This document shows, in pieces, positions 1,083 through 62,290 of a DNA stretch of 64,000 bases. A program made the position numbers and the translations under genes. Numbering within the stretch: position 1 is the first letter of the stretch; every line of letters starts with the position of its first letter. Source of the DNA: Ginglymostoma cirratum (taxonomy: Eukaryota); the NCBI GenBank assembly GCA_024137785.1, contig JAHRHZ010000076.1:15141873-15205872 (forward strand), in the 5' to 3' direction. The notes beneath the pieces were generated by a model. It was not told the origin of the DNA. It saw nothing but the letters and a program-made list of their open reading frames with translations, and ran no database searches.

Positions 1083-1323
1083 GAGATAGTAGGAACTGCA
1101 GATGCTGGAGAATCTGAGATAACCAGGTGTAGAGCTGGATGAACACAGCAGGCCAAGCAGCATCAGAGGAGCAGGAAAGCTGATGTTTTGGGCCTAGACC
1201 CTTCGTCAGAAAATCTTTTCAGAAACCTTTTCTGAAGAAGGGTCTAGGCCCGAAACGTTAGCTTTCCTGCTCCTCTGATGCGGCTTGGCCTGCTGTGTTC
1301 ATCCAGCTCTACACCTTGTTATC
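1083..1323. mobile_element. Fold-back (inverted dimer) Penelope-derived short element, family 1
   Basis: Arms about 1118-1213 and 1228-1323 are reverse complements; hammerhead-like core at 1232-1259. Confidence 0.75.
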
Positions 1324-2728
1324 CCTAACCAAGTGTGTCAGGAGTCTCAAAGGGCAGGGCAGCTATTGAGCTGAGACTTTTAGATAAAGAGTCCCCTCAC
1401 TTTATTCTCAGCCAGTGTAAGGCACAAAGATGACCATTTGATTCTACTGGTCTGTGCAATTGTTTTTAAAGTATAAAATGAGAATCCTCTTGCCTGACAA
1501 TCTCAACCTATCACATATTCTTCTTTTCCTTTTTTCCATGCATATGTCTAGTTTTCACTTAAATGCATCTTCTATATACTATTCACCTCAACTACTATTG
1601 ATGGGAAGAATGAGTGGCAATACAACTAAATGATACTAAAAGAGATGGAAGAAGACAGAAGTGGGGTTGTTTGTGCACAAGTCTTTGAAGTCATGCCTGA
1701 TTAACAAAGCAGTTATTACAGTATTATGTGTAACGGGCTTCATAAAGTCCATTGAAGGACTATGAATACAAAAGTCAAGAAAGTGTACTGAATCTATAAA
1801 GAACACTAGTTTGACTCCAATAGGTGGTAATACATCCAAAACCAATTTACGAGGGACATGAATACTTTGGAGAGGATATAGAGAAATTGTTACGATCTTC
1901 CTCATCCCTGAGAGTTACACATATCTTGAAAGACTGAAGAAGCTCACCTTCTTCTCCTTTGAGTTGAGAAGACATGCTGCGATTACTGGAATTGTGAAAT
2001 AAAAGCAGAGTGTTGGACATCTGGCAGCATTTGTGTAGAGAAAGAGAACAGTTAACAGCAAAGAGTAGATTTGATAATGTTCAAAATCTTTGGTTTAATT
2101 ATTCTAAATATAGAAACTCTTTTGTAATGGCTGAAAAGACAAAATCCTAAGGATAGGAAGTGAAAAGATTGGTAAAAGAGCCAGAGGTGACATTAGAAGG
2201 AACAAACTTAATATGCAGTCAGCAGTTCGAATTTAGAAAGGTTGGTAGAAGCAAAGACTTCAAATGGAAACTGGATAAATATTTTCAAAAGAAAGTTATA
2301 TCAAAAAAGTAGGGCTAACGGTTTGTTCCTTGAAAGAGCCAACACAGACTCGATAGTCAGAATCAAAATACACAGAAGGAAGTTTATTCAGTGTTTCATA
2401 CCATGGTTTAGTGCATCTATCCATTGACAACCTGGGAGCTTGCAGGAGCAGCTGTCATGCCCATGAACCGAGTAACTCTTCCCCCTTCTGGGCATCTGAG
2501 ATTCTGGTGGTGGGGGCTTAACGCGGTGAGAGTTTGACAGGGGCAGTTGTAGTTAAATTGGGAGTGGTAGTTGTATTAATATAAGTTTCCTGGTCCTTAT
2601 TTGAGGAAAGCAAATCATGTGCTTACTATTTTTATGTTCTCCCCCTACACTTCTCTGCTGAACTGTCATGTTTCTGTTCTTCTACAGCTGCTTCTGGTGA
2701 TGCTGAAGCTACAGTAGAGCCGTGCAGG

Positions 2729-2947
2729 ATGAGCAGATTGCCGAATGACCAGGAGGAAGCTCAAGCTGATCGTTTCAATTCCAGTACTTCCCTTAATACC
2801 ACACATTCCGTTCACACATCCCAACTTGCAGCTAGATTAGAGCCATACAGTGACAGGAAACCTATTTCTGACGTTAGGAGGACTTTCTGCTTATTTGTTA
2901 CTTTTGACCTTTTGTTTGTTGGTTTGCTGTGGATAATAGAATTAAAT
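2729..2947 (+). CDS. STARD3NL: STARD3NL coding exon (exon 2; exon begins 2688)
   Basis: Translates MSRLPND...ISDVRRTFCLFVTFDLLFVGLLWIIELN, the start of the MENTAL domain. Acceptor TCTACAG|2688; donor AAT|GTAAGT, phase 0. Confidence 0.97.
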
Positions 2948-4009
2948 GTAAGTATTAAAAACTCCTTTTTAATGTAGGCTTCTGCAGTCAAGTGATAGGG
3001 ATGTATACAAAGCAGTGTATATTCTGCAAATGACTTGTTGCCACGGATACCTTTGACAAACGTGCAGACTGGGTCAAGTTGATCAAATTGTTGGAGATGG
3101 AAGAAGTGAGAGGAGAGGCTCAGATAGAGAATTGGGATGAAGTGGTGAGACAAACTTGCTGGGAATGGACAGAGAGAGGACAGAGCTCTGATAAAATATG
3201 GATAGCATGTGGCCAGTAATAATAATCCCCCATCCAATGAGACTGACTTTTTTTGGAGATCGAAGGACCAAATATTATTTTTTGAATTTAAAATAGATTA
3301 TTTTTATTGCCATTGTGAGAGTCTCTCTTCTTAAATCACTAAATTTAAAGTTTGGCTGGTATCTCTGCTCATTGTGGGTGATAAGTTTAAGAACTTAGCT
3401 ATGTTTAGGCAAAGTGTCACCTCACTTTACACACACCCTCAACCAGTGTAAGGCACAAAAGTTACTATTTGACTCTGCTGGTCTATGCAAGAAGACAGAG
3501 CTGTGGTTATTTGTGCACAATTTTTTTGAAGGAAACATGACATTTTAACAAAACAGTTAATACAATAGTTTGTGTAATGGGCTTTATAAAGCCCAATCAA
3601 GGACTACGAGTACAAAAGTCAGGAAATTTGTACTGGATCTATATCAAATACTAGTTTGATGCCAATCGGTGCATTCAATTCAAATCTAATTTTGGAGAGT
3701 GTCTCAGAGATTTATTACAGTGGTTTCAGGGATAAGGAATTACAGGTATGTGTAAACAGTGACGATGTTCATCTTGTTCTCCTGCGAGCAGAGAATTGCT
3801 GATTTGTTTCTTTCTTGCACTTTGTCCAGTTTTCCTCACATTTTAAGTTGTGTTTACCACTCTTAATTTTCACGTTCCTTCCTTTTACGGCATCAGCAAC
3901 CTTTGATTGGTTGGGTGACCAGGCTGCATGCACTGCTGTCTTGAAGAGATCCGACTATATCTCCTACAATAGTTGGAGGACGTTCTATATATTCTTTAAA
4001 CATTTGTGG

Positions 4010-10339: not shown

Positions 10340-11740
10340 TACATATGGACAATTTAATGAGATCATGGCTGATCCGAAAATCCTTAACTCCACTTTCCTG
10401 CCTTTAATCCATTACTCTTGATTCTGTTACTGTTTTAAAATTCTGTCTGTCTCAGCTTTGAACATAGTTGACAACTGAGCTTTAATAACCCTCTTTGGTA
10501 AAGAATTCCACAGATTTGCTATCCTCTGAGAGAAGAAATTCCTCCCCATCTATATCTTAATGTGTGAATCCTTATTCTGAGATTATGCTGTCTTGTTCTG
10601 GATAGGGGAAACAACCTTTCCACATCTACCCTGTAAAAATCCCTAAGAGTGCTGTACGTTTCAACAAAGTTGCCTCTCATTCTTCTAAAGTCCAATGAGT
10701 AGAAACCTAACCTACTCAATCTCTCCTCCTAAGACAGTCCCTGTATACCTGGTTTCAGCTTTGTGAACCTTTTCTGCACTGCCAGAGTATCTTAACTTAG
10801 ATGAGAGAACCAAAACTGTTCACAGTATTACAGCTGAGATCAGATTAGTATTTTGTATAGTTTTAGCAAAATCTCCCTCTTTTTACACTCAATTCCCTTT
10901 TGTAATTAAGGTTAACTCTCCGTTTGTCTTCCCTGTTACCTGCTGAACTTGGATGCTAGCTTTTTGTGATTTGTGGATGAAGGCTCCCAATTCCTTTGTT
11001 TCATAGCTTTCTGTAGTCATTCTCCGTTTTAAATAATTATTCAGCTCTTCTTCCTGTCAAAGTACATTGCTTCACACTTTACCATATTGTATTCCATCTA
11101 CCAAGTTTTGCCTAATCATTAATACGCCAGGCAACATCAGAGGAGCAGGAAAGCTGATGTTTCGGGTCAGGATCCTTCTTCAGAATATTTCTGGAGAAGG
11201 GTCCCAATCCGAAACATCAGTTTTCCTGTTCCTCTGATGCTGCATGGCCTGCTGTGTTCATCCAGCTCCACACTGTTATCTCTGACACCAGCATAGGCAG
11301 TTCTTGCTGTCTCTTGCCTATTCATTTAACGTGTCCGTGTTCCACAGACACCTTCACCACTTGCCTTCCCACTTACTTTTGTGTCATCTGCAGTATAGTC
11401 ACCATTCTTGTCGTGTAATCAATATATGTTGTAATAATTGTGGCCCCACCACTGATCTCTGTGGCACACCAGTAATTAGACTGCCATCCTGAAAATGGCC
11501 TCCTTATCCCAACTCTGTCTTCTATTAGTTAGCCAATTCCCTACCCAGGCTAATTATACTACCTCCAACACTCTGAGCTCTTATTAGATAGCTTAATGTA
11601 TGGTGCCTTATCAAAGCCTTCTGAAAATCCAAACCTATTACATCTACTGCATTCCTTCTATCTATCCTGCTGTTCCCCCCTCAAAGAATTCTAGTAAATT
11701 TGTCAGGCCTGATTTCCCCTTCGTGAATCCATGGGATTCT
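10340..11740 (-). mobile_element. Degenerate CR1 LINE 3' part with nested fold-back element (11127-11312)
   Basis: RLGFYSLDFRRMRGNFVETY motif. The nested element is flanked by an imperfect TTGCCTA(A/T)TCATT(T)AA duplication. Confidence 0.75.
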
Positions 11741-13889: not shown

Positions 13890-14266
13890 AAAAATTTCTC
13901 ACCTCAAGCCACACCCCCATCTCCTATCTACTAACATCATCCCGCCCCCTTGACCTGTCCGTCCTCCCTGAACTGACCTATCTCCTCCCTACCCCCCTAC
14001 CTACACTCACCTTTACTGGCTCCATCCCCGCCTCTTCGACTTGTCTGCCTCCTCTCCACCTATCCTCTCCTCTCTCTCCATCCTCTGTCTGCCTCCCCCT
14101 CTCCCTATTTATTTCAGAACCCTCTTCCCCTCCCCCATTTCTGATGAAGGGTTTAGGCCCGAAACGTCAAGTTTTCCTGCTCCTATGATGTTGCTTGACC
14201 TGCTGTGTTCATCCAGCCCCATGCTTGTTATCTCGGATTCTCCAGCATCTGCAGTACCTTTTATCT
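13890..14266 (+). mobile_element. Penelope-like terminal fragment with hammerhead core
   Basis: Near-identical to 1-250; core at 14141-14168. Confidence 0.75.
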
Positions 14267-15599
14267 TTGTGCCAAAGAATGTTGGTGAAGTTTTGCACCT
14301 TTTTTTTCACGAGCACTGCATCTTTTTTTCTAGTTTGACTAACGTCTGTATTTGTGCATGTTGCAGTAAATATCAACTACAACCTATTCATATTCCTGAG
14401 TAATGCTTACTAAATAGTATTTGTTACTCTGCTCAGAATATGCCTTCAAGTGCCATAATGTGATTCAAAAATTGAGTTTTGTCCTATATTGTGAGCAATT
14501 GCTGAGTTTTTCTCAAACGTGGACTTCTGCTTTCTGAACAGCCTTTTGGAGTGTGAATTCAGTTCTAACCAGTACGGAAGAGGTTGAAGTGACGTTGATT
14601 CTCAGAAGTACGTTTTGCTGAAGCGCAGAGCAGCTGTTAACCAGTGACTACCCTTCAGTATAGCCATGCTGATTGATATCTGTAGGTCGGCTGATCAGGG
14701 TTGATGTGACCATTTTATATTGAGGCTGTCGTGAATGCTGATGTGGTTTTTGTTTTTGGAAATAATACAATTTTGTCCCTAAACTAGACTGATGGTGTTA
14801 GGATGCATAAGTTATTGTGTGGCACATAGGTTAATGAGCTCATGGTTCAATAGAAGACCCCCTGTCTGGGGTCTGTGCCTGTTTCAGTTGCCAGTTCTTT
14901 GAACATGGTGCTCCTATTGTAGTGCACAGTCTCTCCACCACATCCTGTCCTGTTCAGTTATTTTCGTAGAGATGGGTTGAAACTTTTTTCTTTTGAGGGA
15001 TTGATTCTCTGCCACGGGAACATATTTCCCGAATCTCTAGAGCCAAGCCATGATCTTAAACCACAGTGAGTATTTCCTGCATAGTGTTAGTTTCGGCTGA
15101 GCTGTCTGGGTTAAGTTGTTGCAGGTGTTATATGTGGGAGTTTAACTGTTTTCAGCCACAGAACAACCACCACTTCACATATCTTGGGCTGTCTCCTTCA
15201 GAATCTGCTATATAAACTTAAACTTTTTCTAAAAAAGTTTAGCTTTGAGGAACCAAAAGATCTAATTGCATAGGCTAGCTGTAACTGAAAGGTTGGCCAC
15301 TGCAACACTTAAATACTCTGTGTAAATATTTGAATGTTTTAATTTTTCTGCTGTGCTGTGCAACAAAATAAGTTAATCTCTTGAAGACTTGCCAGGGGAC
15401 AGTAAGACAACAGTTGATGCAACCTATACAATTATGGTGTGTCCACATTCTCAGGAAAGATGTTGAGACAATGGATGGCTGCAGGACAGATTCACTAGAG
15501 ACTACTGCAAACTGCAAGGTGTTAGAAATATGAAAAAAGATCTAAATTCAAACTGTTTTTGTTGAACCTAAGATTGATGTAGCTGGTAGCATATGATGC

Positions 15600-17546: not shown

Positions 17547-17758
17547 ACAAAAACAAAGATGCTGGAAAAGCTCAGCAGGTCTGGCAGCATCTGTGAAGGA
17601 GAAAACAGAGTTAATGTTTCGGGTCCGGTGACCCTTCCTCACTGGACCTGAAACGTTAACTCTGTTTTCTCCTTCACATGCTGCCAAATTTGCTGAGCTT
17701 TTTTTGTTTTTTAACTGATTTACAGCATCCACAGTTCTTTTTTGGTTTTTATTTAGTA
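17547..17758. mobile_element. Fold-back Penelope-derived short element, family 2
   Basis: Internal inverted repeat centred near 17635; 14-bp TSD TCTAACTC(T/C)GAGTG at 17533-17546 / 17759-17772. Confidence 0.75.
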
Positions 17759-18306
17759 TCTAACTCCGAGTGCCCTTTAATGGGAGCCTGTCCATGCTTA
17801 ACACAAAAGCAAAATTCTGCAGATGCTGGAAATCTGAAATAATAATGAAATGCTCTGCACATTAGGCGATATCATGAAGAGAAAGAGTATGATGATAAGG
17901 GCAAACTTGATAGCAGTAGATTGTTTCCAATTGTGAAGCATGTGAACAAGAGTCCATTGATAAAAGATTAAAGTAAGACATTTGGAAGGAGGAGAAATCC
18001 CTTAAGATTGTAAGACTGTGAAATCACTTTTGATTGAAACACAACCATGCCAACTTTTTAAAGCTTGAAAGAAAATAGGAGCAAGGCAAATATGGCGGAT
18101 TTGAATGTAAACACCTACAGAACTGGTTAAACAGAATGACGTGTTTCTGTGTTACAATGCTGTGTTTCATTCACTAATCACTTTCTATCCAGAAAAATAG
18201 TGAGTAGCACTGCCTGAAAATATACCTGCCTGCTTGTTGATATAGTTCACTTCCATTGTCTCTGAGGCACGGAAGTTGACTTTTATTGCTTCTGTTTAAT
18301 TTGTAG

Positions 18307-18347
18307 ATTCTGACGAGGAACACGATGCTGAGAATCCAAAACGTTAA
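18307..18347 (+). CDS. STARD3NL: STARD3NL last coding exon (exon 8)
   Basis: TTGTAG|(D)SDEEHDAENPKR*, phase-compatible with exon 7. Total CDS is 690 nt = 229 aa. There is no START domain, hence STARD3NL rather than STARD3. Confidence 0.85.
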
Positions 18348-19109
18348 CAGGTGTGGAAAATGGCAGAACTGTTGATTCCTGTTTGCTCATCAAGTCCAAG
18401 TTCTTTGAGTGAAATACTGACAGCTGCACAATTTCAAAAGACAGAAGCTAATGATAAGTGCGCTTTAGTTTGTTCTCTTTCCCTGGCACGTGCCTGCTCT
18501 GTTTGTTCTCCACAGAACAAACAGCGTTCTCCCTGACCTCTTCTAAGTGTTATACTTAGAAGCACGACCTCAGGGTTCCTGATACGGAACTTCATATTGC
18601 GTTTAAATGCAGATGGATTTTCCAGAACCAGCCTGTACCATTGGAATGGACTCCACCCAAACGAGGCTGGAACCTAGCAGACAATGAGTTTAAACTAGTA
18701 ATGAAGGGGAGGGGCTGAATGGAAATATGAGTAGAGATATATGGTTTGTAAATAAACAAAGGTGATGAGTGTAGAGGAGTAATCAAAAATTCTGCTTTAA
18801 ACACCACCTGTAAATGAAGAACTAAGATGTAAAATAGTTAAGGCAGAAGAGAAAAACAGAACATGAAAGCAGAAGGGCAGCTAGGCTGTGAAGTCTAATA
18901 AGTTCATAAAAACCTGTATAGTATAGTAAACAAATTGAGTGAATTGCAGGCACAAGTTTAACTTGAAGAGTCTGACGTGGTAGCGTAGTATTACAGAAAC
19001 ATGACTGCAAGACATAGGGGAGATAATAAGACCATAAGACATAGGAGCAGAAATTAGGCCATTCGGCCCATTGAGTCTGCTGTGCCATTCAATCATGGCT
19101 GATAAGATG

Positions 19110-22100
19110 GTAGAGATAATGTAAGTGGACCAGTAATCCAGACTTGGTTCAGCCAGTACGTAGTTCAGATTTAACTACAACAGCTGCTAGAATTTAAATT
19201 CATTTAATAAATCTGGAATTACAAACCTGTTGCATAATGATGACCATGAAAATATAGCCAATTATTGTAAAAGCCCATCCGGTTCACAAGTCCTTTTACA
19301 AAAATAAACCTGCCGTTGCCTGGTCTAGTCTGCATTTGACTCCAGACACACTGCAATATAGTTGAATCTTAAATGCATTTGAAATGGGCTAGCAGACCAG
19401 TGAGTTCTGCAAAGTCTGCCTTACTAATATCTGGGGACTTGTGCCAAAACTGGGAGATCTGCCCTACATACTAGTCAAACAACAACCTGACATTACAGAG
19501 TATGATTCAGCATGTACGACTCTCTCCCAGCCATGACCACGATAATCCCTGGGTATGTTCTGTCAGACAGACGCACCAGAGGTCGCGGCATAGTGGTATA
19601 TAATCAGGAGAGAGTCACCCTGACAGTCCTCAACATTGACTGTAGATCCTTCCCTGACATATCGTGGTACCAAGACAAACTTGGGTAAGGAATCTCCTGT
19701 TTTCCATCAATAACCATGTTGAACTCTGCTTAAAGGAAGCACTGAGGGTGGCAAAGGCAATGTAGTCTGGATGGAGATTTCGATGTCCATTACCAAGAGT
19801 GGTTGAGCAGCAGTGAGCTGGTTGAGTTGTAAATGACTGGGGCTAGTGGTAGGTGGTGAAGGAACCAACAAGTTGGGGAAAAAAAATACCTTATGTCACT
19901 CATACCAATCTGCCTACCACAGATGTAACTGTCTGTGATGGTATTGGTAAGAGAAACAATCTTTGTGAGGACGAAGCCCCATCTTCATGTTTGAGGACGC
20001 TCTCTGTCATGTGTGGCACTAGCACTATGCTAAATGGGATAGATTTCAAACAGATTTAGCAACTCAGGTTGCACATCCAGGAGATGATGTGGGCCATCAG
20101 AGGCAGCAGAAGTGTACAATAACATAGTCTGCCTGGCATATACTCCACTTTAGCATTACTGACAAACTAGTGGATCAATGCTGACAGAAAAAAGTGCTGG
20201 TGGGGAATGCCAGGCCCAAGACCGTGCATACCTAAACTTTCACTCTGATGACACTGCAACACATGCCATATTCAAGTGCCAAACAAGTGATGATTGAGGC
20301 TGAGTGATTTAACCAGCAACATTTCAGATCTAAGCTTTGCAGCCCTGCTATCTCTCCAGTCATCACGCTTGTGATGCTAAGGCATGCAAGGCCATTGGTC
20401 AAGTGCTGGAAAATGGAATTAGAATACTTAGGTGGTTGTTTTTGACTGGCACGAACACAATAGGCCAAAGGGCCTTTTCCCATGTGGTAGATCTCTATGA
20501 ATGGTAGTGAGCAATCAAGCAACTTGTTGGAGGAGGCATCACAAATGTTCCCATCCTCAATGACTGGTAACACTGTTGTTTGGAGTCATGTTCGGTACAA
20601 AGGCTGATGGATGTGGTTGTTGAAGGCCAATCGTGTCACCTCCAGGATATCATTACAAGTGTTTCTCTGGATAATGTGCTTTGCCCAACCATCTTCAGCT
20701 GCTTTATCAATCACCTTCCCACCATCATATGGTTTGAGTCAGATGCCCATGATAACTGCATAATTTTCAACACCCTTTGTGACAACCAAGGTACTGAACC
20801 AATCTATGTCCAAATGCAGCAAGACCTGGACAGTATCCAAGCTTGGGCTGATAAGTGACCAGTAACTTTTGCTTCTCCATGCTAGGCAATTACCATCTCC
20901 AAGATGAAAGGATCTAACCATTGCTACTTGACATTCAATAGTGTTACCATCACTGAATCCTCCACTATCATCATCCTAAGGTTACCATTGACCAGGATCC
21001 AAACTGGATGAGCAGTGTAGATCCTGTGGCTACAAGAGAAGGAAAGATGTTAAGAATCCTGGTGCTTGAATGGCATCACATCCACAAATATTCAATCCCT
21101 CCATCACTGATGCATAGCAGTAGAAGTGTGTATCATTTACAAGCTGCACTGCAGAAATTCACCAAGGTTTCTTAGACAGCTCCTTTCAAACCTATGATCA
21201 CTACCAAAGCAAAGGCCTAGGAAAACGGATGTATGAAAGCGCACAAGTTCTACAAATTCCTCCTCCAGCCACTCATCGTCTTGATTTGAAAATATTATCA
21301 ATGTTCCTTCACTGTCACTGGGTCAAGATTCTGGAATTCCCTCCCTAACAGCATTATAGATGTCAAATGGATTTCAGAGGTTTGAGAAGACAGTTCACTA
21401 CCAACACCATCTCAAATTCAGTTAAGTCGCACCAGCAAAACCCACAGAACATGAATGTTTTTTTTTTAAGAAAAACATCCTCCCTCGAGACTGACCTATA
21501 CCACACTCCCATGACCATCACACAGGATAATCTGGTTCATTGAAAAGTGCAGGAGGGCATGCTGAGAACAGCACAACTAATACTGAGGTGTCAATCTGTT
21601 AGAACTACAATGCAGAACTACTTTCATGCCAAAAAGTAGAAGCAGCATGCAAAACGAGGCCTAAGTGATCCCACAACCAGGGAGTTGGATCTAAACTCCT
21701 GCCAAGCCCAGCAAATCAGCTGAGAAGTGAAAACTGAAAGAACTGCGGATGCTGTAAATCAGGAACAAAAACAGAAGTTGCTGGAAAAGCTCAGCAGGTC
21801 TTGCAGCAGAGTTAACGTTTCGAGTCCGGTAACCCTCAGAACTGCAGTTCTGAGGAAGGGTCACCAGGCCTAAAACATTAACTCTGATTTTTTCCTCTCA
21901 GTTGCTGCTAGACCTGCTGAGCTTTTCCAGCAACTGGTGAGAAGTAACTTGCCCCTGACTCCCCAAAACCTATTCACCATCTACAAGGCACAAGTTTAGG
22001 AATGTGATGGAATAGCATTGGCCATGAGGAGAGAATTTCAAGACAAAACTCGATTGTTAACCCATCTACGACCTTAATCATTTTGCTCCCTCCACCACAG

Positions 22101-25520: not shown

Positions 25521-25969
25521 TCATGTTCTTCCTGAAGGCAACTCTCTTCCCACACACCACCCCCCCTCCCCCATCCAAAATAAAAGACTTCTGCAATCTT
25601 AATATCTATTGTATTTCTATCTTTCTTCAGTTCTTATGAAAGGTCATAAACCTGAAATGTTAACTCCACAAATGCTGCCTAATCTACTGAGTATTTCTGT
25701 TTTTATTTCACATTTCCGTTCTTCAAACTAGTTTGCTTTCTATTATGTTGCTATTACTTCTAACTATATTGTAATCTTGTCAGTACAAATTTTCAAGCAG
25801 TCCAATGACAACTAAAATTGTCTTATGCTTTGAGTTTATGTCCACATTTAAGCACAAACATCACCCATGTGCTTCTGACTGAATAGATGAGTGGTTGTTC
25901 ATCTGTGTTTTCAGCTGTTTGGATATTAGTTACAATTAATTTGACTTTTTTTCTCCACTTCACCCTTAG

Positions 25970-28810: not shown

Positions 28811-29497
28811 AGTAAATGGATCAATGAAATTTGAGGAAAGGTGTTTATTTGAGAAATTGTATTTTGTTGCTTATGATTTGTGATCATTTCTCTGCCTTTT
28901 TATCACCTAGTCTATTGATTTTTACTGCCCCGACAAAGTCACATGTTTTAAACCCATCAAATAATTTTATTCCAAAATAATTTTATTGAGGTGTCTAATC
29001 ATCTAAATATTTTGAACTTTTTTTAATATATTCGTTCACTGAATGAGGGCATTTCTGGCTAGGCCAGCATTTATTGCCCATCACTAGCTGCCCAGAGAGC
29101 AGTTAAGAGTCACTCACATTGCTGTGGGTCTGGAGTCACATGTAGGCCAGATCAGGGTAAGGATGGCAGTTTCCTTCCCTAAAGGGCATTAGTGAGCCAG
29201 GTAGGTTTTTCCAACAATCAACAATGGATTCATGGTCATCATTCAACTCCTAATTTCAGCTGTTCTGAAATGTTAAATTCAAATTCCATCATCTTCTGTG
29301 GCATGATTCAAACCCAGGTCTCAGAATATTACCTGGGTCTCTAGATTAACAATTCCACAACAATATCCCTAGGCCATTGCCTCCCTGCTTATGTTTGTGG
29401 AATTGCTACAAGCATTGTTAATACATTTTTTCATTAATTTCATAAGAGGCCTAGTGGCCAGGAGAAGTCAAATGGCCCAGAGACAGGATTGCCGGTT

Positions 29498-30922
29498 CTA
29501 AAGAAAACAGGGAACTATAGACCGTTTAGCCTGACGTCAGTGGTGGGAAAGATGCTGGAGTCAATTATAAAAGATGAAATTACAACTCATTTGGATAGCA
29601 GTAATAGGATAGGTCAGAGTCAGCATGGATTTACGAAGGGGAAATCGTGCTTGACTAATCTTCTGGAATTTTTTGAGGATGTAACTATGAAGATAGACAA
29701 GGGAGAGCCAGTGGATGTAGTGTACCTGGACTTTCAGAAAGCCTTTGATAAAGTCCCACGTAGGAGATTAGTGAGCAAAATTAAGGCACATGGTATTGGG
29801 GGCAAGATACTGACTTGGATTGAAAATTGGCTGGCTGACAGGAAGCAAAGAGTAGTGATAAACGGGTCCCTTTTGGAATGGCAGGCGGTGACCAGTGGGG
29901 TACTGCAAGGTTCAGTGCTGGGACCGCAGCTGTTTACAATATAGTTTAATGATATAGATGAAGGCATTAAAAGTAATATTAGCAAATTTGCTGATGACAC
30001 AAAGCTGGGTGGCAGTGTGAAATGTGAGGAGGATGTTATGAGAATACAGGGTGACTTGGACAGGCTAGGTGAGTGGGTGGATGCATGGCAGATGCAGTTT
30101 AATGTGGACAAATGTGAGGTTATCCACTTTGGTGGCAAGAACAGGAAGGCAGATTACTACCGAAATGGAGTCAAGTTAGGTAAAGGGGAAGTACAGCGAG
30201 ATCTAGGTGTTCTTGTACATCAGTCTATGAAAGCAAGCATGCAGGAACAGCAGGCAGTGAAGAAAGCTAATGGCATGCTGGCCTTCATAACAAGAGGAAT
30301 TGAGTATAGGAGCAAAGAGGTCCTTCTGCAGCTGTACAGGGCCCTGGTGAGACCGCACCTGGAGTATTATGTGCAGTTTTGGTCTCCAAATTTGAGGAAG
30401 GACATTCTTGCTATTGAGGGAGTGCAGCGTAGGTTCACGAGGTTAATTCCCGGAATGGCAGGACTATCGTATGTTGAAAGATTGGAGCGACTGGGCTTGT
30501 ATACACTTGAGTTTAGAAGGATGAGAGGGGATCTGATTGAGACGTATAAGATTATTAAGGGATTGGACACTCTGAAGGCAGGGAGCATGTTCCCGCTGAT
30601 GGGTGAGTCCAGAACCAGAGGACACAGTTTACAAATAAGGGGTAGGCCATTTAGAACAGAGTTGAGGAAAAACTTCTTCACCCAGAGAGTGGTGGATATA
30701 TGGAATGCTCTGCCCCAGAAGGCAGTGGAGGCCAAGTCTCTGGATACTTTCAAGAAAGGGATGGATAGAGTTCTTATAGATAATGGAATCAAGGATTATG
30801 GGGATAAGGCAGGAACAGGATACTGATTGTGGATGATCAGCCATGATCATAATGAATGGTGGTGCTGTCTCGAAGGGCCAAATGGCCTACTCCTGCATCT
30901 ATTGTCTATTGTCTATTGTCTA
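29498..30922 (+). mobile_element. Young 5'-truncated CR1 LINE (RT to C-terminus, one in-frame stop)
   Basis: GNYRPFSLTSVVGK, QHGF.KGKSCLTNL, YLDFQKAFDKV, QGSVLGP, KFADDTK and LVRPHLEY in one frame with a single TAG at 29942; (ATTGTCT)n tail. Confidence 0.95.
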
Positions 30923-36199: not shown

Positions 36200-38700
36200 C
36201 ATAGAGTGATAGAGTCATAGAGACATACAGCACAGAAACAGACACTTCGGCCCAACTTGTCCATGGCGGCCAGATATCCTAAAGAAATCTAGTCCCATAT
36301 GTCAGCATTTGGCCCATATCCCTCTAAACCCTTCCTCTTCATGTACCTATCCAAATGCCTTTTAAATGTCATAATTGTACCAGCCTCCACCACCTCCTAT
36401 GGCAACTCATTCTATACACCCACCACCCTCTGCGTGAAAAAGTTGCCCTTTATTTCCCTTTTAAATGGAGTTGTTGATTGGTTCGCCAAGTTTACTGGTT
36501 TTTGTACAAACGTTTCGTCCCCCTTCTAGGTGAGATTCTCAGTGCTGTCTAGCCTCTGTTGAAGCGCTGTTGTTCTGTTCCATTCTGAATTTATATGGTT
36601 CAGTCTGTCATGGTGGGTAGTTCTGTTTCAGGTGGTATGTAGATGGGGTCTATTTCAACATGTTTGTTTTTGGCACCAGTGGTTGAAAACCAGGCCTCCA
36701 GGAATTCTGGTGCTTGTCTTTGTTTTGCTTGTCCAAGTACTGTTACTGTGTCCCAGTTAAACTGATGTCCTTCTTTGTTGGTATGAATAGAAATGAGGGA
36801 AAGTTGGTTGCGCCATTTTCTTTAAATCTTTCCCCTCTCATCTTAAACCTATGCCCTCTAGTTTTGGATTCCCCTACTCTGCGGAAAATACCTTGCATGT
36901 TCACCCTATCTACGCCCCTCATGATTTTATAAACCTCTATAAGGCCCACCTCAGTCTCCGGCACTTCAGGAGAAATAACCCCAGCCTATTCCACCTCTCC
37001 CTATAGCTCAAAACCTCTAACCCTGGCAACATTCTTGTAAATCTTATCTGAATCCTTTCAAGTTTCACAACATCTTTCCTATAGGAGGAAGACCAGAACT
37101 GAATACAGTATTCCAAAAGTGGCCTAACCAGTGTCCTGTATAACTGCAACATGACCCCCAATTCCAATACTCAATGCACCAACCAATAAAGGCAAGTGTA
37201 CCAAATGCCTTCTTCTCAACCCTGTGATTCCACTTTCAAGGAGCTATGAACTTCCACCCCAAGCTCTCTTTGTTCAGCAACACTCTGCAGGACAAAACTA
37301 TTAAGTGTATATGTCCTGTCCTGATTTGTCTTACCAAAATGCAGCACCTCACATTTATCTAAATTAAACTCCATCTGACACTCCTTGGCCCAATTGCCCA
37401 TCTTGTCAAGGTCCCGTTGCACTCTGAGGTAACCTGCTTCGCTGTCTACTACACCACCAATTTTGATGTCATCTGCAAACTTACTAATCATGCCTCCTAT
37501 ATTCACATTCAAATCATTGTTATAAATGACAAAAAACAGTGAACCCAGCATGAATCCTTGCAGCATACTCCTAGTCACAGGCCTCTAGTCCAAAAAGCTA
37601 CCATCCACAACCACGGTCTGACTCCTATCATCAAGCCAGTTTTGCATCCAAATGGCTAACTCACCCTGTGTTCCATGTGTTCTAACCTTGCTAATCAGTC
37701 TACCCGCACAACCATGTCAAATGCCTTACTGAAGTCCATATAGAGAAACGTCCACCACTCTGCCTTCATCAGTCTTCTTTGTCACTTCTTCAAAAATCTC
37801 AATCAAGTTAGTGAGACACGATTTCCCATGCACAATGTCATGTTGACTATCCCTAATCAGACCTTGCCTTTGCAAATACATGTAAATCATTTCTCTTAGA
37901 ATCCCCTGCAACAACTTGCCCACCACTGATGTCAGGCTCGCCAGTCTATAGTTCTCTGGCTTTTCCTTATCACCTTAGTTAAATAATGGAACCACATTAG
38001 CCAACCTCCAGTCTTCAGGCACCTCATCCATGGCTACCGATGATACAAATATCTCAGCAAAGGGACCAGCAATCACTTCCCTAGCTTCCCACAAAAGTCA
38101 GGGTTACACCTGATCATGTCCCGGAGATGTATTCACTTTTCTGCATTTTAAGATGTCCAGCAGCTCCTTCTTTGTAATATGGACACTTGTCAAGATTTCG
38201 CTACTTATTTCCCCAGGTTCTCCAGCTTCCATATCCTTCTCCATGTAAACACCAATGTGAAATACTCGTTTAGTATCTCCCCCATATCCTGTGGTTCCAC
38301 ACACAGGCGGCCTTATTGATTTTTGAGGGAACCTATTCACTCCCTAGTTACTCTTTTCTCCTTAATATATTTGTAGAACATGTTAAGAATCTCTTTGGAT
38401 TCTCCTTAACCTTAATTGCCACCGCTACATCATGTTACCTTTTTGCTCTCCTAATTTCCCTGTTGAGTATACTTCTCCTGCCTTTATACCCCTTGAGGGA
38501 TTCACTTGATCCCTGTTGTCTATTTCTAACATTTGCCTCATTCTTTTTCTCAACAAGAGCCCCAATTTCTCTTATTATCCTGTATTCCCTACAACTACCA
38601 GCCCTGCCTTTCACACTAACAGGAACATAATGTCTCTGGACTCTTGTTATCTCATTTTTGAAGGCCTCCCACTTTTTAGCAGTCTCTTTATCTGAGAACC
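36200..38700 (-). mobile_element. Frameshifted CR1 LINE
   Basis: SQH...GKSCLTNLIE, SKFADDIKIGG and LVRPLLEYC spread over several frames. Confidence 0.9.
36467..36820 (-). mobile_element. Penelope-like element 3' fragment (GIY-YIG endonuclease C-terminus) nested in CR1
   Basis: Minus-strand RNQLSLISIHTNKEGHQFNWDTVTVLGQAKQRQAPEFLEAWFS...NKHVEIDPIY; degenerate hammerhead (CTGAGAA...CGAAACGTT) at about 36509-36542; TTTAAAT duplicated at 36460-36466 / 36821-36827. Confidence 0.8.
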
Positions 38701-40305: not shown

Positions 40306-41790
40306 TTAGAACATAGAACATAGAAGAACATAGAACAATACAGCGCACAACAGGCCCTTCGGCCCTCAATGTTGCGCCGACCTGTGAACTAATCTAAGCC
40401 CATCCCCCTACACTATCCCATCATCATCCATATGCTTATCCAAGGACTGTTTAAATGCCCCTAATGTGGCTGAGTTAACTACATTGTCAGGCAGGCCATT
40501 CCACGCCCTTACCACTCTCTGAGTAAAGAACCTGCCTCTGACATCTGTCTTAAATCTATCACCCCTCAATTTGCAGCTATGCCCCCTCGTACTAGCCGAC
40601 GTCATCATCCTAGGAAAAAGACTCTCACTGTCCACCCTATCTAATCCTCTGATCATTTTGTAGGTCTCTATTAAATCCCCTCTTAGCCTTCTTCTCTCCA
40701 ATGAGAACAGACCCAAGTCCCTCAGTCTTTCCTCATAAGACCTTCGCTCCAGACCAGGCAACATCCTGGTAAATCTCCTCTGCACCTTTTCCAATGCTTC
40801 CACATCCTTCCTGTAATGGGGCGACCAGAACTGTACACAATATTCCAAGTGAGGCCGCACTAGCGTTTTGTACAGTTGCAGCATGACATCACGGCTCCGG
40901 AACTCAATCCCTCTACCAATGAAACCTAACACACCGTATGCCTTCTTAACAGCACTATCAACCTGGGTGGCAACTTTCAGGGATCTATGTACCTGGACAC
41001 CAAGATCCCTCTGCACATCCACACTACCAAGAATCTTTCCATTGACCCAGTATTCTGCCTTCCTATTATTCTTCCCAAAGTGCATCACCTCACATTTATC
41101 TGCATTGAACTCCATTTGCCACCTTTCAGCCCAATTCTGCAGTTTATCCAAGTCTCCCTGCAACCTGCAACATTCTTCCACACTGTCCACCACTCCACCG
41201 ACTTTAGTGTCATCTGCAAACTTACTAACCCATCCACCTATGCCTGCGTCCAAGTCATTTATAAAAATGACAAACAGCAGTGGTCCCAAAACAGATCCTT
41301 GTGGCACACCACTAGTAACCGGACTCCAGGCTGAATATTTTCCATCAACCACCACTCGTTGCCTTCTTTCAGAAAGCCAGTTTCTAATCCAAACTGCTAA
41401 ATCTCCCTCAATCCCATGCCTCCGCATTTTCTCCAATAGCCTACCATGTGGAACCTTATCAAAGGCTTTACTGAAGTCCATGTACACCACGTCAACTGCC
41501 CTACCCTCATCCACATGCTTGGTCACCTTCTCAAAAAACTCAATGAGGTTTGTGAGACACGACCTGCCCTTGACGAATCCATGTTGACTATCTCCAATCA
41601 AATTGTTGCTTGCTAGATGATTATAAATCCTATCTCTTATAATCCTTTCCAAAACTTTTCCTACAATAGATGTAAGGCTCACTGGTCTATAATTACCTGG
41701 GTCATCTCGACTGCCCTTCTTGAACAAGGGCACAACATTTGCAATCCTCCAGTCCTCTGGTACTAAACCTGTAGACAATGACGACTCAGA
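40306..41790 (-). mobile_element. Young 5'-truncated CR1 LINE with an uninterrupted ORF2 3' part
   Basis: Open frame 40408-41811 with VPEDWRIANVVPLFKKG, FSKAFDKV, PQGSVLGP and FADD; (TTCTATG)n-type tail at 40306-40337. Confidence 0.97.
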
Positions 41791-42050
41791 CAGAATGCTA
41801 GATTTGAACATACGTACGAATCAATTCAAAAACAGCTTCTTCCCTGCTGTTATCAGACTTTTCAATAGACCTCTTAAATGATAATGTTGATTTCTCTCTC
41901 TGCACCTTCTCTGCAGCTGTAACACTGTATTCTGCACTCTGTTCTGCTACCCTGGTGCACTTTGTATGATATGATTTGCCTGTAGAACACACAAAACAAC
42001 ACTTTTCACCAAATCTCAGTGTATTTGACAAAAAATAAAACAATAACTAA
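41791..42050 (+). mobile_element. Rex1/Babar-like LINE 3' end
   Basis: RTNQFKNSFFPAVIRLFN C-terminal motif followed by a 3' UTR with AATAAA. Confidence 0.65.
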
Positions 42051-44190: not shown

Positions 44191-44285
44191 GAGATAACAA
44201 GGTGTAGAGCTGGATGAACACAGCAGGCCAAGCAGCATCAGAGGAGCAGGAAGGCTGACGTTTCGGGCCTGGACCCTTCTTCAGA
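44191..44285 (-). mobile_element. Monomeric family-1 hammerhead element
   Basis: Core at 44257-44284; TSD AATGACTTTT at 44181-44190 / 44286-44295. Confidence 0.8.
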
Positions 44286-44559
44286 AATGACTTTTCTTTA
44301 TTTTAAAGGTGGAGGGGGGGAGCATTATGGAGGGTAGACTGACTGTGAGCTTTGAAAAGTGAGTGAAGTTTGATACTTTTTCACTGAGTCGGTTGCGAAG
44401 TCCCATAACCAGTCAGACATGGGTAATGCAGACAATGGGTATAATGTTGGAGTCAGGAGACAGTAATGTTATTGGGGTTGTAATTCTGGTGTCACGTCCG
44501 GACTGGGTAGAGGTGTTCCAGCCCAGCAAGTCATTAAAATTTTAATTCATCTGGAATTT

Positions 44560-46920: not shown

Positions 46921-47209
46921 CAACTTTAGGCCGCCAGAAGGACACAAACTCCGTCTCCCGGATTCTGGACAAAACCGTGGAGGCAGGCAGCCAGAGTGGA
47001 TATTTCCACCGGCCGATGGGAAGTGCCTTTGTCGAGCATGGATTTAGGATGTTACCGTCATGTTCATGATAGATGACAAAGGGACTGAGTTTACATGAGC
47101 AGTGCGAGTTACTGTCCCAAAGATATTTGCGGATCCAAACACTTGATCTTTTATTTCCCTTGAGAAGAGCGCGCTACTCGAACAATGTACATAACATTCC
47201 CCTTAATTT

Positions 47210-47350
47210 TGATGTTGATTTCTGATGAAGGGTCTAGGCCCGAAACGTCAAGTTTTCCTGCTCCTATGATGCTGCTTGGCCTGCTGTGTTCATCCAGCCC
47301 CACGCCTTGTTATCTCGGATTCTCCAGCATCTGCAGTACCTTTTATCTCT
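47210..47350 (+). mobile_element. Monomeric family-1 hammerhead element
   Basis: Core at 47222-47249; 15-bp TSD CATTCCCCTTAATTT at 47195-47209 / 47351-47365. Confidence 0.85.
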
Positions 47351-54808: not shown

Positions 54809-55015
54809 ACAAGAACAACAAATACAAAGTTGCTGGAAAAGCTCAGCAGGTCTGGCAGCATCTGTGGAGGAGAAAACAGAGTGAACATTTCGGGACCGGA
54901 CGCGAAACGTGAACTCCGTTTTCTCCTCCTCAGACGCTGCCAGACCTGCTGAGCTTTTCCAGCAACTTTGTATTTGTTCCTGATTTACAGCATCCGCAAT
55001 CCTTTTGGTTTTTAT
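54809..55015. mobile_element. Fold-back family-2 element in TRGC intron 1
   Basis: Arms about 54818-54893 and 54903-54978 are inverted; 14-bp TSD TCTATAATTTATCT at 54795-54808 / 55016-55029. Confidence 0.85.
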
Positions 55016-55220
55016 TCTATAATTTATCTGTATGGTTATATGATGGATTATTGCGTCAGGCAAATACCGGACGCTGTTTCTACAACAAAATGCAGTAACT
55101 TAAAGTGAGTGTCAAAAAGAACATTTTAATGAGATGGAGATTGATGCAAAATGTTTCCTGAACCGCTTGTGCTAAGGAGTAGAAGATAAGAGAAGACAAT
55201 GGAGCCAATGGAAACAGTAC

Positions 55221-55541
55221 CTCCTGGGGATTCCTTCGGAATCGTGACTTTAGCTGGATTTGTTTCATGCTCCGCCCGGCAGGAAATGTTTTGGGAAGTC
55301 CATTCAAGCTTAGTGATTATCAGGCGACTGACCACTGAGTAGGCGTCGTTTTCCTGTTTCTCCACTGCGTCTGTTAACACCTGGTCACTGGGTGCGTTCT
55401 TATCCCCGATGATCCATTGGACCCTAATGACTTCGGGGAAGAAATCAGTCAGGAGACAGACGACGGCCGCTCTGTTATTCAAGTCCAGCTCAGTTTCGTT
55501 CGGACCGAACGTTTGAATTTTTGGTTCCCGAACATTGTAGC
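55221..55541 (-). CDS. TRGC: T-cell receptor gamma constant region exon 1 (Ig C1-set domain)
   Basis: Acceptor TTTTTTTTGTTAAAATCAG|; translation (G)YNVREPKIQTFGP...AVVCLLTDFFPEVIRVQW...YSVVSRL...ISCRAEHET...ESPG; donor G|GTACTG; 321 nt, phase 1-1. Gamma assignment rests on the CLL.DFFP.VI...W motif, 12-RSS J segments with no D seen, and adjacency to STARD3NL. Confidence 0.93.
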
Positions 55542-55689
55542 CTGATTTTAACAAAAAAAAAGGTCTGTAAACTTCTATGTTAAGGACAAGCAAATTTGCA
55601 ATACACAACTGTCTGCAGGTGGAGTAAATACGGGGAAATAGCTTCCAGTGTCAGGCAACCATGGGTTCATATGTCCAAACCGTAAGATC

Positions 55690-56094: not shown

Positions 56095-56716
56095 ATAAAA
56101 GGTACTGCAGATGCTGGAGAATCCGAGATAACAAGCGTGGGGCTGGATGAACACAGCAGGTCAAGCAGCATCAGAGGAGCAGGAAAACTTGACGTTTCGG
56201 GCCTAGACCTTTCATCAGAAANNNNNNNNNNNNNNNNNNNNNNNNNNNNNNNNNNNNNNNNNNNNNNNNNNNNNNNNNNNNNNNNNNNNNNNNNNNNNNN
56301 NNNNNNNNNNNNNNNNNNNNNNNNNNNNNNNNNNNNNNNNNNNNNNNNNNNNNNNNNNNNNNNNNNNNNNNNNNNNNNNNNNNNNNNNNNNNNNNNNNNN
56401 NNNNNNNNNNNNNNNNNNNNNNNNNNNNNNNNNNNNNNNNNNNNNNNNNNNNNNNNNNNNNNNNNNNNNNNNNNNNNNNNNNNNNNNNNNNNNNNNNNNN
56501 NNNNNNNNNNNNNNNNNNNNNNNNNNNNNNNNNNNNNNNNNNNNNNNNNNNNNNNNNNNNNNNNNNNNNNNNNNNNNNNNNNNNNNNNNNNNNNNNNNNN
56601 NNNNNNNNNNNNNNNNNNNNNTTTCTGATGAAAGGTCTAGGCCCGAAACGTCAAGTTTTCCTGCTCCTCTGATGCTGCTTGACCTGCTGTGTTCATCCAG
56701 CCCCACGCTTGTTGTC
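56095..56716. mobile_element. Young inverted-arm Penelope-derived insertion spanning the assembly gap
   Basis: Arms on either side of the N-run are near-perfect reverse complements, with cores at 56191-56218 and 56625-56652; 17-bp TSD TTAGCTTTTGTTCAAAG at 56078-56094 / 56717-56733. Confidence 0.85.
56222..56621. other. Assembly gap (400 N)
   Basis: Run of N. Confidence 1.
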
Positions 56717-57820
56717 TTAGCTTTTGTTCAAAGTTGCGCAGCGAGTTGTGATCTGGAATGCACTGTCTGTAAAAGATGCGGAAACTAATTCAAATTTTGA
56801 AAAGTAGAAATACATAAAGCTGTGGCGGGAGAGCAGAGGAGAAGCGCCAACTGGAAAGACGTGGCCCTTCACGATAGACCTAATATCTTCCTTCTCTAAT
56901 GTATCTTTGTAAAATTTTACGCTGCCTTCCAAATCTCTTAACACTTTTGCTCCCCTGGCCACTTTCTTTGATTCTAAACTAATGAAAAGGAAGTCGCTCC
57001 TTTCCTTTCTTTAGGGATTCCTCTGGGACCAGAGTAATTGAGTTGAAATGATCAATGAATAATCAGGAACTTTTAATAGTACGTTGACCCGTGGTAATTT
57101 TGAAGCTGAACATGAACTAAATGCCGGTCTTTTCTCGTTCTGACTGAAATGTGATGAACGGACCATATTACCGGCCTTTTGGGGCTCCGATCCCACATGT
57201 CGCCTCAGTCCCCCTCACCGGCGCGGATAGTCCAGCACCGAACAGATCGCCTACCCTTCCCCCAGTCCTCCCGCGTCCAGACCTACTCAGTTACCCACGC
57301 TTTATCCCTACATCATCAACTGCCAAGATGTTATACACAGCCACTAGCTCCTAAAGTATAGATTTGTGGACAGTGTAAACAGCTTGGGACATCAATCATG
57401 TTCTTAACGCTGCTCCAAAATAACTAAAGTACTTTCACCCTGAAAGTCGAAATTTTATGTAAATCCATTATATATAAAGGCAAACTATTGTGAATGCTGG
57501 AATTTCAAACAAACACAGAGAATGCAGGAGGAACTCAGCTTGCCTTGTGTAGCATAAATTCACTGCTTATTCTGTTATGTTGGACATTGCCCAGAGCTGC
57601 AGCTATTGTGTGAGAGCAGTGAACGATTTCAACTGGAAACTAAATTCCTCGTTCATTTTGGGGTCCCACTGTAACTTCCCGGTTTCTACACGTTCCATTC
57701 CCAACAAATTAAAGCATCTGATCGCCCCTAAAGCGATGCTAAGCGTTGTTTTTCGTGTCTCCCTGAAGCAGAATGTGAACTGTTCCCGTGTATTGTTAAA
57801 TGCCGGATTTGAAGACTCGC

Positions 57821-58020: not shown

Positions 58021-58029
58021 TCAGCGGTG

Positions 58030-59227: not shown

Positions 59228-59255
59228 CACTGTGTTACACCCCCTGACAATAACC
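59228..59255 (-). other. 12-bp-spacer recombination signal sequence
   Basis: Read on +: CACTGTG-12 nt-ACAATAACC. Confidence 0.95.
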
Positions 59256-59699: not shown

Positions 59700-60550
59700 G
59701 GTTTCTTCTTTTATTGCAAAAATGTATTTTATTCACAAAAAAAACTTTATATATAACTATGTACAAAGTGTTCTCCATCCTTTCCATGGAGTCTTTGCAG
59801 AGAGAAAAAGGAAACACGGGGTCATATTGGAATTTGACATCCCACAGAGCTACCAGTTAGTCGCAAAAGCTAAGGCATTTTTACCTCATACAGGAAAAAA
59901 GATTTCCACATATTTTGAGGCAATGGGAGTCTGAGAACTGAACAGACCCTTGCTATATTTTGGCAGATAGACCTTAAACAGCAGTCTTTCCCCTTGGCAG
60001 TAGCTGTCCTAAGCTGTGGTGCTTCACCCTGCACATAGTCCTGGACCTTGGAACGCGCCAGTCTGCAGCACTCAGTCCAGGCCAATCCCTGCACTGGAAG
60101 ACCATCAAGTTTTGGGCAGACCAAAGAGCATCTTTCTCTGAGTTGATGGACCTCCAGGAGCAGCTAATGCTTGTCCTTGTGTGCATCCTGGGAAGCAGCC
60201 TGTCGAGCACAGAGTCCTTTGTCACGGATCTGTTCAGGACCAACCTCCACAAAAACTGTTGCATGTCTCTCCAGACCTTCTTTGCAAAGGCACATACCCA
60301 AAGGAGGTGTGTCACAGTCTTTATTCCCTCCCCCAGCCACTTTGAGGGCAGTGTGTGGTGGCAGAGAGAGTAATGAAGGATTTGACAGGCAGGGCCATTC
60401 TCACCACCAGCCAAGCGACATCGTGGTGCTTGTTGGAAAGTTCCGGTAACGAGTAATTCTGCCAAATAACTTTTACAGTCTGCTCAAGGTTAAGGCAAGA
60501 GCGAGGACATGTTCTTTGCAAGCTGGGTTGATCGATCCTTTATCCCTTCA
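59700..60550 (-). mobile_element. Tx1-like (L1 clade) LINE 3' end
   Basis: HDVAWLVVRMALPVKSF...CP...TVTHLLWVCAFAKKVW...INS.KDALWSAQN (zf-RVT-like C-terminus); AATAAA-rich 3' end at 59710-59735. Confidence 0.75.
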
Positions 60551-60829
60551 CGGTCGGAATAGATTACCAGAATAGAAGTCAGCTGCTTACCTAATAGGTC
60601 CGTGTCGGGTGAAGAAAAGTTGTGGGGAACACTGCTGTATCTCATATCCAATATCTGAGTAATGCAAGTCAATTAAGTTTCCTGAAAATAAATCACAATC
60701 ACAGAAGTGACCTTTCAGGCCTTTTGCTTGAAAGTATACAGCAATATTCTAAATGATCCAGAAGCGCAGATCCAGAGGTTGACCTGGTGTGACCAGTGGC
60801 AGAGTAGCATAATGAGCTAGAATGTGAAG

Positions 60830-62290
60830 CTATAATGACATGTGTTTAACATGGGCCATGTAAAAAGAAATGAAAATTTTTTTCTGTCTGGAATAGGAAG
60901 ATAACTTTCTGTTCACAGCTGATAAAAAGAGGAAAATTTGCTTTCTCAGTCACCAAAGGAAATCACTAAGTAAAAAGGATAATTTTGGAATGACACGCAA
61001 TAATGATGCACAGTGATTCATGGATACATGTCTGTTGAACAATATGCTTCAGACAAAGAAAGTTGATGAACTGAAGGTGATTCTGTAAGGTGAACTGTTT
61101 TTTTTCAAACCAGCCATAAAAGATAAGGCTAGCACTGAAGCACTGAGGCAACATTTTGTACTTCCTATTTTCTGGCAAAACAGAGGAAATCATTACAGAT
61201 GGTAGAGTAGCCAAAGAAACAATGACTGTGGGCAATAATTCTTTATTCAAGGACTTTAAGAACAAAGAAGAAATAATAATGGCACCAAAACTTGTCACCT
61301 GATGATTTCACAGTAGCAAGATGAGTGGAATCTTTGTCTGAAGACATCTTTCAGCAACAACAGCAGGACCTGAAGGACTGTGAACACTTCTCATTGCAGT
61401 TTGATGAATCCATCAACACAACAGCCCAGCTGATTGTTCTTATGTGCGTAGTTTTTAAGGACAGGACAACTAAAGAAGATCTTCTCAGTCTAGTGCCCCT
61501 TAAAGAGAGGTTAACTGTTCGGGTATATGGAATGAATTCAAAAAGTGTGTTCTTGAGAAAAAAATTCCAATCAAGAAATTGGTTTCTTTCACAACTGATG
61601 GTGCACCAGCCATGTTTGACACAAATTTGGACTTTGTTGCAAAACCAAAGTCGCTGGAAAAGCTCAGCAGGTCCAGCAGCATCCGTGGAGGAGAAAACAG
61701 AGTCAACATTTCGGGTCCGGAGACCCTTCCTCAGAATGGACTTTGTTGCATTTTGCAGAACTGGTTGTGATTACTCTTTTGTTATTTACCACAGTATAAC
61801 CCATCACAATATTAAAGAGTAGAGTTATGGACTTTTTGGGTATAATGAAATGTGTCGTGAAGATTGTAAACTGGATTTGAGCAAGACCCCTGCAGCACCT
61901 TTTGTTGATATTCCTACTCGACAAACTTGATGCGCCCTACTGTTAATCAATACTCCTTGCTGATCTGAACTGATCGAGTCGAACAAAGATCCTACAACGA
62001 TTTTTAGGTCTGATGCCTGAAATCATCATTTTTCTTAAATCAAGGAATGAAGAGCACAATGACCTGTGAGACAGTGCACAGTTGTTCAACATCAGGTTCC
62101 TTACAGAACATCTAAATATAACAAGCTGAGCTGTGAATGGCAGGGAAGGGATAGAAACTTAGCACATATGAGCAGTGCTGAACATGCATTCAAATTTAAA
62201 CTGGGTCTATGGTCCTCCCAACTGAAAAATAAAATGCTGCAACCTTTCCTCAGTCTGGAGAAGATGCTAGAAAAAAATCAAAGACTAAAA
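60830..62290 (+). mobile_element. hAT Charlie/Buster (GTF2IRD2-like) transposase fossil with nested family-2 element (61642-61736)
   Basis: FSLQFDES...AQL...KEDLLSLVPLKER and VSFTTDGAPAM catalytic motifs, frameshifted. Nested element TSD TGGACTTTGTTGCA at 61628-61641 / 61737-61750. Confidence 0.85.

Follow-up and report, generated by a model that had tools for sequence, protein, structure and literature searches.

Short hammerhead repeats in a Ginglymostoma cirratum contig as probable run-off copies of the RNA leader of two Penelope-like retrotransposons

The window analyzed here, a stretch of 64,000 nucleotides from Ginglymostoma cirratum (assembly GCA_024137785.1, contig JAHRHZ010000076.1, positions 15,141,873 to 15,205,872 of the forward strand), contains short (100- to 250-bp) noncoding repeats of two families that carry a minimal hammerhead ribozyme motif. 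By sequence, these repeats are the terminal module, a minimal hammerhead plus a 35-bp tail, of two Penelope-like retrotransposons (PLEs), and the short copies are probably complementary DNAs (cDNAs) primed inside the PLE RNA leader and run off at its end, with no self-cutting element of their own. Positions in the unit are numbered from +1, the A of ATTTCTGA in family 1 or of AGTTCTGA in family 2. A sequence-only reading of the window had listed 11 short insertions, and the repeats are present at all 11 sites. Each of the five target site duplications (TSDs) that it quoted occurs exactly twice, TSDs or short repeats were located at five further sites, and none was found for the insertion at 1083. 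The inventory missed two long family-1 copies that run into the 3′ untranslated region (UTR) of the parent.

Both long copies lie on the plus strand. The first (1 to 248) reaches the window edge and consists of 3′ UTR, a TATA-like TATTTAT at 121 to 127, +1 at 152, an intact minimal hammerhead with a predicted cut after 183, and a short 3′ end. The second (13897 to 14268) is 5′ truncated and spans −239 to +133 with its tail present; its TATA-like box is at 14106 to 14112 and its +1 at 14137, and its hammerhead is intact, with a predicted cut after 14168. Among the listed family-1 sites, monomers are found at 44191 to 44288 (minus strand, +1 to +98, with a 10-bp TSD at 44181/44286 that overlaps the 5′ end) and at 47210 to 47350 (plus strand, an 8-nt filler followed by +1 at 47218 and ending in a tail, with a 15-bp TSD at 47195/47351). 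The latter has an intact minimal hammerhead, with a predicted cut after 47249. The other family-1 insertions are dimers. That at 1082 to 1323 is head to head, its left arm (minus strand) covering +2 to +132 with a tail and its right arm (plus strand) about +2 to +97, and the hammerhead motif is mutated in both. An older dimer at 11126 to 11314 has a 13-bp TSD with one mismatch (11108/11314), and one without any hammerhead, at 32208 to 32347, has arm starts at +39 and +63 and a 15-bp TSD (32193/32348). In the dimer at 56095 to 56716, which has a central 400-N gap and a 17-bp TSD (56078/56717), both arms start at +2 and share a G10.1-to-A change.

Family 2 is represented by a dimer at 17547 to 17753 (arm starts at +6 and +16, one short and one long 3′ end, 14-bp TSD with one mismatch at 17533/17759), a dimer at 21730 to 21936 (right arm from +1 at 21846, G12-to-A change in the core, 8-bp repeat at 21721/21938), and a third at 54809 to 55015, whose arms, starting at +18/+19, meet at the CCGG in the loop of helix II and which lacks CUGANGA and has a 14-bp TSD (54795/55016). 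A monomer of about +3 to +97 lies on the minus strand at 61642 to 61736 (14-bp TSD at 61628/61737), and a decayed insertion at 33155 to 33288, an inverted tail remnant followed by a plus-strand arm, is flanked by an exact 12-bp TSD (33143/33289). Decayed pieces of further related hammerhead/tail families occur at 17805 to 17850, 18308 to 18360, 25633 to 25720, and 57476 to 57540.

The hammerhead extends over about +1 to +36, and the predicted cut in family 1 falls after +32. A descriptor of the minimal motif (core CUGANGA-N-helix II-GAAA-palindrome-UH, with helix I) gave 32 matches in the window and 120 blind loci (the blind sample, 624,753 non-N bp) versus none in each of 10 shuffles. Three of the 32 (loci L078, L096, and L181) belong to a further hammerhead family, not related to these two, in which helix II is longer and helix I differs. 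The motif that had been assigned to the listed copies is thus real, but the full descriptor is matched by a single one of the listed sites (47210); the other 10 have a changed core, helix, or triplet or are without CUGANGA, and full-motif copies in the window number three, the monomer at 47210 and the two long copies. The GUC cleavage triplet described for the repeats applies to family 1, whereas family 2 has GUU. Helix I is AUUU/AAGU in family 1 and AGUU/AACU in family 2, changed on both sides, and a U-G pair in helix II of the former corresponds to U-A in the latter, in a comparison of only two related families. An Rfam scan of the window returned no hammerhead family at an E value of ≤5 and only weak microRNA (miRNA) matches, which were driven by fold-back hairpins. 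Minimum-energy folding of monomers did not recover the hammerhead (z of −0.7 to −1.2), a result that is uninformative because the motif is expected to be dimer dependent. Long family-1 copies contain a segment, from the TATA-like box to +1, for which pairing with the CUGAUGAAGGG core is predicted (window 110 to 239 and 14095 to 14224), and this pairing could keep the 3′ ribozyme copy off while the 5′ copy, which is without that segment, would be free to fold.

Family-1 copies found via the sequence upstream of 14137 run unbroken from coding sequence for reverse transcriptase (RT; YIDD) and GIY-YIG through a C-rich 3′ UTR into the unit, and the family-2 unit is likewise continuous upstream with the RT and GIY-YIG frames of a second element, in line with the link to Penelope that had been drawn from the minimal hammerheads. 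Pfam matches on the parent frames are GIY-YIG (E = 1.9e-5) and RVT_1 (E = 9e-6, below the curated cutoff), and the motifs YIDD and YIGETKR can be read directly in the protein frames. The linker between the RT and the endonuclease (EN) has the form CX4CxxC (CNRRKCYTC in family 1 and CNRRRCNTC in family 2). A CX2-5CxxC linker marks the Neptune and Nematis clades (PMC8557442). Judged from these frames, the parents are two endonuclease-bearing PLEs, probably of the Neptune type. Upstream walking in family 1 found the same module before the open reading frame (ORF) and after the GIY-YIG domain, along with partial tandems (the pseudo-long terminal repeat [pLTR]), which makes the unit at once the leader of the element and its 3′ terminus; the first ATG of the long frame lies at +171. 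A DNA search with the RT region gave no match, and a protein search was used instead. Family 1 is very young, and the best 150 of 31,993 candidate matches to its RT are all 100% identical to the 110-residue query.

The high genome-wide abundance that had been predicted is confirmed by 65,401 exact core matches for family 1 and 7,163 for family 2. The blind sample contains 102 insertions, 78 of them short (about 125 per Mb), which, if the density is uniform, extrapolates to several hundred thousand short copies in the assembly.

The 5′ ends of the blind arms were tabulated without 28 arms of <78% identity, 13 family-1 arms whose 5′ end touches N or the locus edge, and the first matches from the animal's own genome, which are biased by the 5′ end of the query. 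In family 1 (66 uncensored arms), 24 start above −40, 2 at −40 to −6, 20 at −5 to +6, 9 at +7 to +29, 2 at +30 to +36, and 9 beyond; in family 2 (53 uncensored arms), the corresponding counts are 1, 1, 24, 17, 3, and 7. With both families pooled, 44 of 119 arms start at −5 to +6 versus 3 in the 35 bases above (P = 6e-23). There is no excess of starts at the cut site (+32/33), with 5 at +30 to +36 versus 26 at +7 to +29 (P = 0.40). Among loci found by the core pattern, every copy scored as short (25 of family 2, including L277, which is a diverged long copy, and 5 of family 1) starts at −2 to +5, and the short share is 25/30 for family 2 versus 5/28 for young family 1. Extreme truncation, one of the explanations offered by the sequence-only reading, accounts for the continuous series of truncated copies, but superimposed on this series is a sharp excess of starts where the full-length element begins.

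This boundary also opens ORF-leading copies of family 1. In a set of 36 of 40 listed copies, picked by the N-terminal region of the ORF, 7 start at −1 to +2, 1 at +10, 1 at +33, and 18 between +104 and +505; of the rest, 5 are preceded by a pLTR and 4 are interrupted by N. The single copy at +33 (L360) starts exactly where the predicted cleavage product would. The only TATAWAW-like site (≤1 mismatch) in the 600 bp upstream is at −31 in family 1 and at −31/−29 in family 2, and the context of +1 is initiator (Inr)-like (CCATTTC or TCAGTT), by the generally known consensus and spacing of TATA and Inr elements. We take +1, which ORF-leading copies share and which lies about 30 bp below the TATA-like box, to be the probable start of transcription, dictated by that box and the Inr-like sequence. 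We rejected a splice acceptor as the source of the boundary, because AG is absent from this position in family 1 and because +1 or more is retained by 12 of the 25 family-2 short copies. Inspected for a cap-derived G in 31 copies with an intact +1 to +4, the preceding base is the native C in 19, G in 8, and A in 4. At two query-biased loci (L008 and L002), fillers of repeated ATTT/TTGA-like units precede +1, which is suggestive of reiterative copying at the RNA end.

The 3′ ends of the blind arms are bimodal, at about +98 to +103 and about +132 to +137, and the longer one is the known PLE tail. The dimers had been described as head to head with one arm truncated; the orientation is correct, but the "truncated" arm is mostly one with the shorter 3′ end, at about +98, the other fixed 3′ end being at about +134. 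Among 70 short dimers from blind and targeted loci (two loci counted twice), 62 combine a long and a short end, 8 have two short ends, and none has two long ends (P = 3e-11); 54 of the 62 have one or both arm starts at or above +6. No combination of arm starts is seen more than 4 times in the 70, and junctions vary by locus, with short fillers or overlaps, so that the dimers look built anew at each insertion. Rare alleles are shared by the two arms in 54 of 346 cases versus 2.6% in shuffled pairs (control at most 5.1%), a sixfold enrichment that shows a common subfamily or template and not a single molecule. TSDs of 10 to 17 bp were detected in 27 of 102 blind insertions versus 0 of 100 controls. 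We rejected a miniature inverted-repeat transposable element (MITE), in which a whole palindrome with a fixed center is copied and a short fixed TSD is made, in view of the differing junctions and the TSD lengths. A dimer transcript folds into one long antisense hairpin (−188 kcal/mol) that buries the motif. A dimeric ribozyme requires two same-sense motifs (PMC4209133), which the head-to-head dimers, forming one long hairpin, cannot provide; no head-to-tail tandem pair was found among 132 arms. N runs often sit at the center of young fold-back dimers (window 56222 to 56621; L007, L023, L024, L028, L104, and L106), and young dimers are therefore probably undercounted in the assembly.

We therefore favor, with reasonable though not strong confidence, the view that the short copies are run-off cDNAs of the leader. 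An RNA starting at +1 would have a priming cassette at each end, and RT primed within the leader, at about +98 or +135, would proceed until it reached the RNA 5′ end. The endonuclease would make staggered nicks, with one primed strand giving a monomer; priming of both nicked strands, one at each start site, would give a head-to-head dimer with joined cDNA ends and a one-sided tail. If priming took place instead at the 3′ module, the ordinary long, variably 5′-truncated copies would result. Self-cleavage would not be needed, the integrated copies would derive from uncut RNA, and the ribozyme would be a passenger in them. Comparable behavior has been shown in vitro for an anole Poseidon element, whose RT starts at two internal sites close to the 5′ end of the RNA, both strands being cleaved and extended and uncut RNA serving as the main template (PMC11167929). 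Of the 14 commonest family-1 haplotypes, 8 are found among long as well as short copies and none among short copies alone, and family-2 short copies do not cluster (P = 0.81).

Several observations weigh against this interpretation. Of the 14 ORF-leading copies whose sequence extends into the first 40 nt or farther, 5 continue upstream, and a strong RT stop or a cut at +1 on a longer RNA would produce the same boundary in short and full-length copies. Full-length 5′ ends or an ORF start for family 2 were not found, and no shared sequence follows 73 family-2 tails. Only 27 of the 102 blind insertions gave a TSD. Family-1 short copies cluster together (nearest-neighbor value of 0.67 versus 0.50, 0 of 500 permutations), as would also follow from a separate lineage, with age as a confounder. 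The Drosophila virilis Penelope promoter is internal and TATA-less, so that the TATA reading is not general. RNA reads were examined for family 1 in one deep, unstranded poly(A) run from another sample with the same species label (run X21 gave only 17 reads). They include 1,391 loose ends before +2, with a step in depth there, which are probably from element copies inside host transcripts; the deep run shows no site where many molecules begin, and no RNA 5′ end was seen.

A stop or trimming event at the boundary is the first alternative, and we consider it unlikely. Here, the copies would be 3′-primed, 5′-truncated products, with the RT stalling or the endonuclease recutting at the 5′ edge of the hammerhead, beside the C-rich 3′ UTR. 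The series of long 5′-truncated copies (24 of 66 family-1 arms starting above −40) is continuous, the first base of helix I lies exactly at the boundary, and +1 to +3 of family 1 is ATT, a motif preferred for cutting by the anole enzyme (PMC11167929). However, the boundary is identical in family 2, which has AGTT and a different upstream sequence, the spacing to the TATA-like box is kept in both families, and RT halted by the structure would presumably stop at the 3′ edge of it rather than at the 5′ edge.

In the second alternative, which also appears improbable to us, the chemistry is that of the leader run-off, and only the source of the template differs: dead 3′ ends that keep their TATA-like box, or short copies themselves, would be transcribed and mobilized in trans by the parent enzyme, like the master copies of short interspersed elements (SINEs). 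Internal priming would make the 3′ end of such an RNA irrelevant, family-1 short copies do cluster somewhat, and family 2 is nearly all short (51 of 53 arms) yet has 3,811 TATA-region copies. The shared family-1 haplotypes, the lack of clustering in family 2, and the fact that dimer junctions are not repeated as units speak against it. A retrozyme-like class, as proposed by the sequence-only reading, in which tandem hammerheads would cut monomers from a multimer for circularization and retrotransposition, is very improbable, although the minimal hammerhead is genuine with helices I and II that vary between families and vertebrate retrozymes are reported as pLTR derived (10.64898/2026.07.22.740005), given the absence of tandems among the 132 arms, the unit ends off the cut site (starts peak at +1/+2, not +33), and the inverted, antisense fold-back dimers, several without the core, that bury the motif.

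Leader run-off may have a broader corollary, which we put forward as speculation and rate as doubtful. PLEs would routinely integrate the counterpart of a retroviral strong-stop cDNA, and, because priming is internal, dead 3′ ends that keep the TATA-like box could act as RNA polymerase II source genes. Thousands of such relics would supply a trans-mobilized, SINE-like class whose leader copies number in the hundreds of thousands, and each dimer would be the trace of a single enzyme complex that had copied the leader onto the two nicked strands.

Much of the architecture is already known. Endonuclease-bearing (EN+) PLEs (PMC8557442; Adineta Pen2a, PMC3846280) share the RT with C-terminal GIY-YIG, the pLTR, a head-to-head inverted 5′-truncated copy, a one-sided tail of 30 to 40 bp, TSDs, and partial tandems, and the Pen2a pLTR has TATA and Inr-like motifs as here (PMC3846280). 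Unlike those described, most insertions here are leader only, at about 125 per Mb, with a fixed 5′ start common to full-length copies. Solo pLTRs are likewise known, but in Adineta they are TSD-less and ascribed to recombination or deletion (PMC3846280), whereas the leader copies here carry their own TSDs. Internal priming is known from the Anolis carolinensis Poseidon element PAc (PMC11167929), which resembles our families in that the tail is delimited by two internal sites of RT initiation downstream of the hammerhead, both strands are cut and extended, and the template is uncut RNA, a process that here is inferred. PAc belongs to the Penelope/Poseidon clade and its ORF starts inside the hammerhead, whereas the long frame here starts at +171; genomic leader-only run-off insertions are not described for PAc in the available part of that paper. 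The dispersed minimal type I hammerheads of metazoan PLEs (PMC4209133) also have a short helix I, an extra nucleotide after A9, G10.1-C11.1, and a palindromic 15.2-16.2, and are mostly single motifs ascribed to truncated PLEs, with some opposite-strand pairs; helix II here is shorter (4 to 5 bp), and in the portion of that paper available the ends of single motifs are not mapped. Non-LTR retrozymes (PMC7229834; 10.64898/2026.07.22.740005) are likewise short, noncoding, and PLE related, with a type I hammerhead, but form head-to-tail tandems processed at the ribozyme into circles (PMC7229834), and we find neither tandems nor cut-site ends. Fixed-start, leader-only run-off insertions were not found in a literature search that did not extend to Repbase or Dfam, to most subscription papers, or to supplements of the papers cited here, any of which may contain them.

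These results bear on how PLEs make pLTRs, inverted ends, and tails. Single insertion events are naturally recorded in this genome in very large numbers, and their ends agree with the anole in vitro result and point to the RNA start. Leader run-off would explain the tens of thousands of lone minimal hammerheads in genomes, most of them as inert by-products, and such copies would then be annotated as PLE leaders and not as SINEs, MITEs, miRNA hairpins, or retrozymes.

The window also contains other frames. Long interspersed element (LINE) RT frames, which we take to be CR1-like, lie at 40408 to 41811 (minus strand; RVT_1 match at 40411 to 41808, E = 3e-37), 29489 to 30826 (plus strand), and 37216 to 37578 (plus strand). 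An open frame at 55129 to 55608 (minus strand) has an immunoglobulin C1-set domain (Pfam E = 9.6e-16) and looks like a constant exon of an antigen receptor gene; the family-2 insertion at 54809 sits about 110 bp from it.

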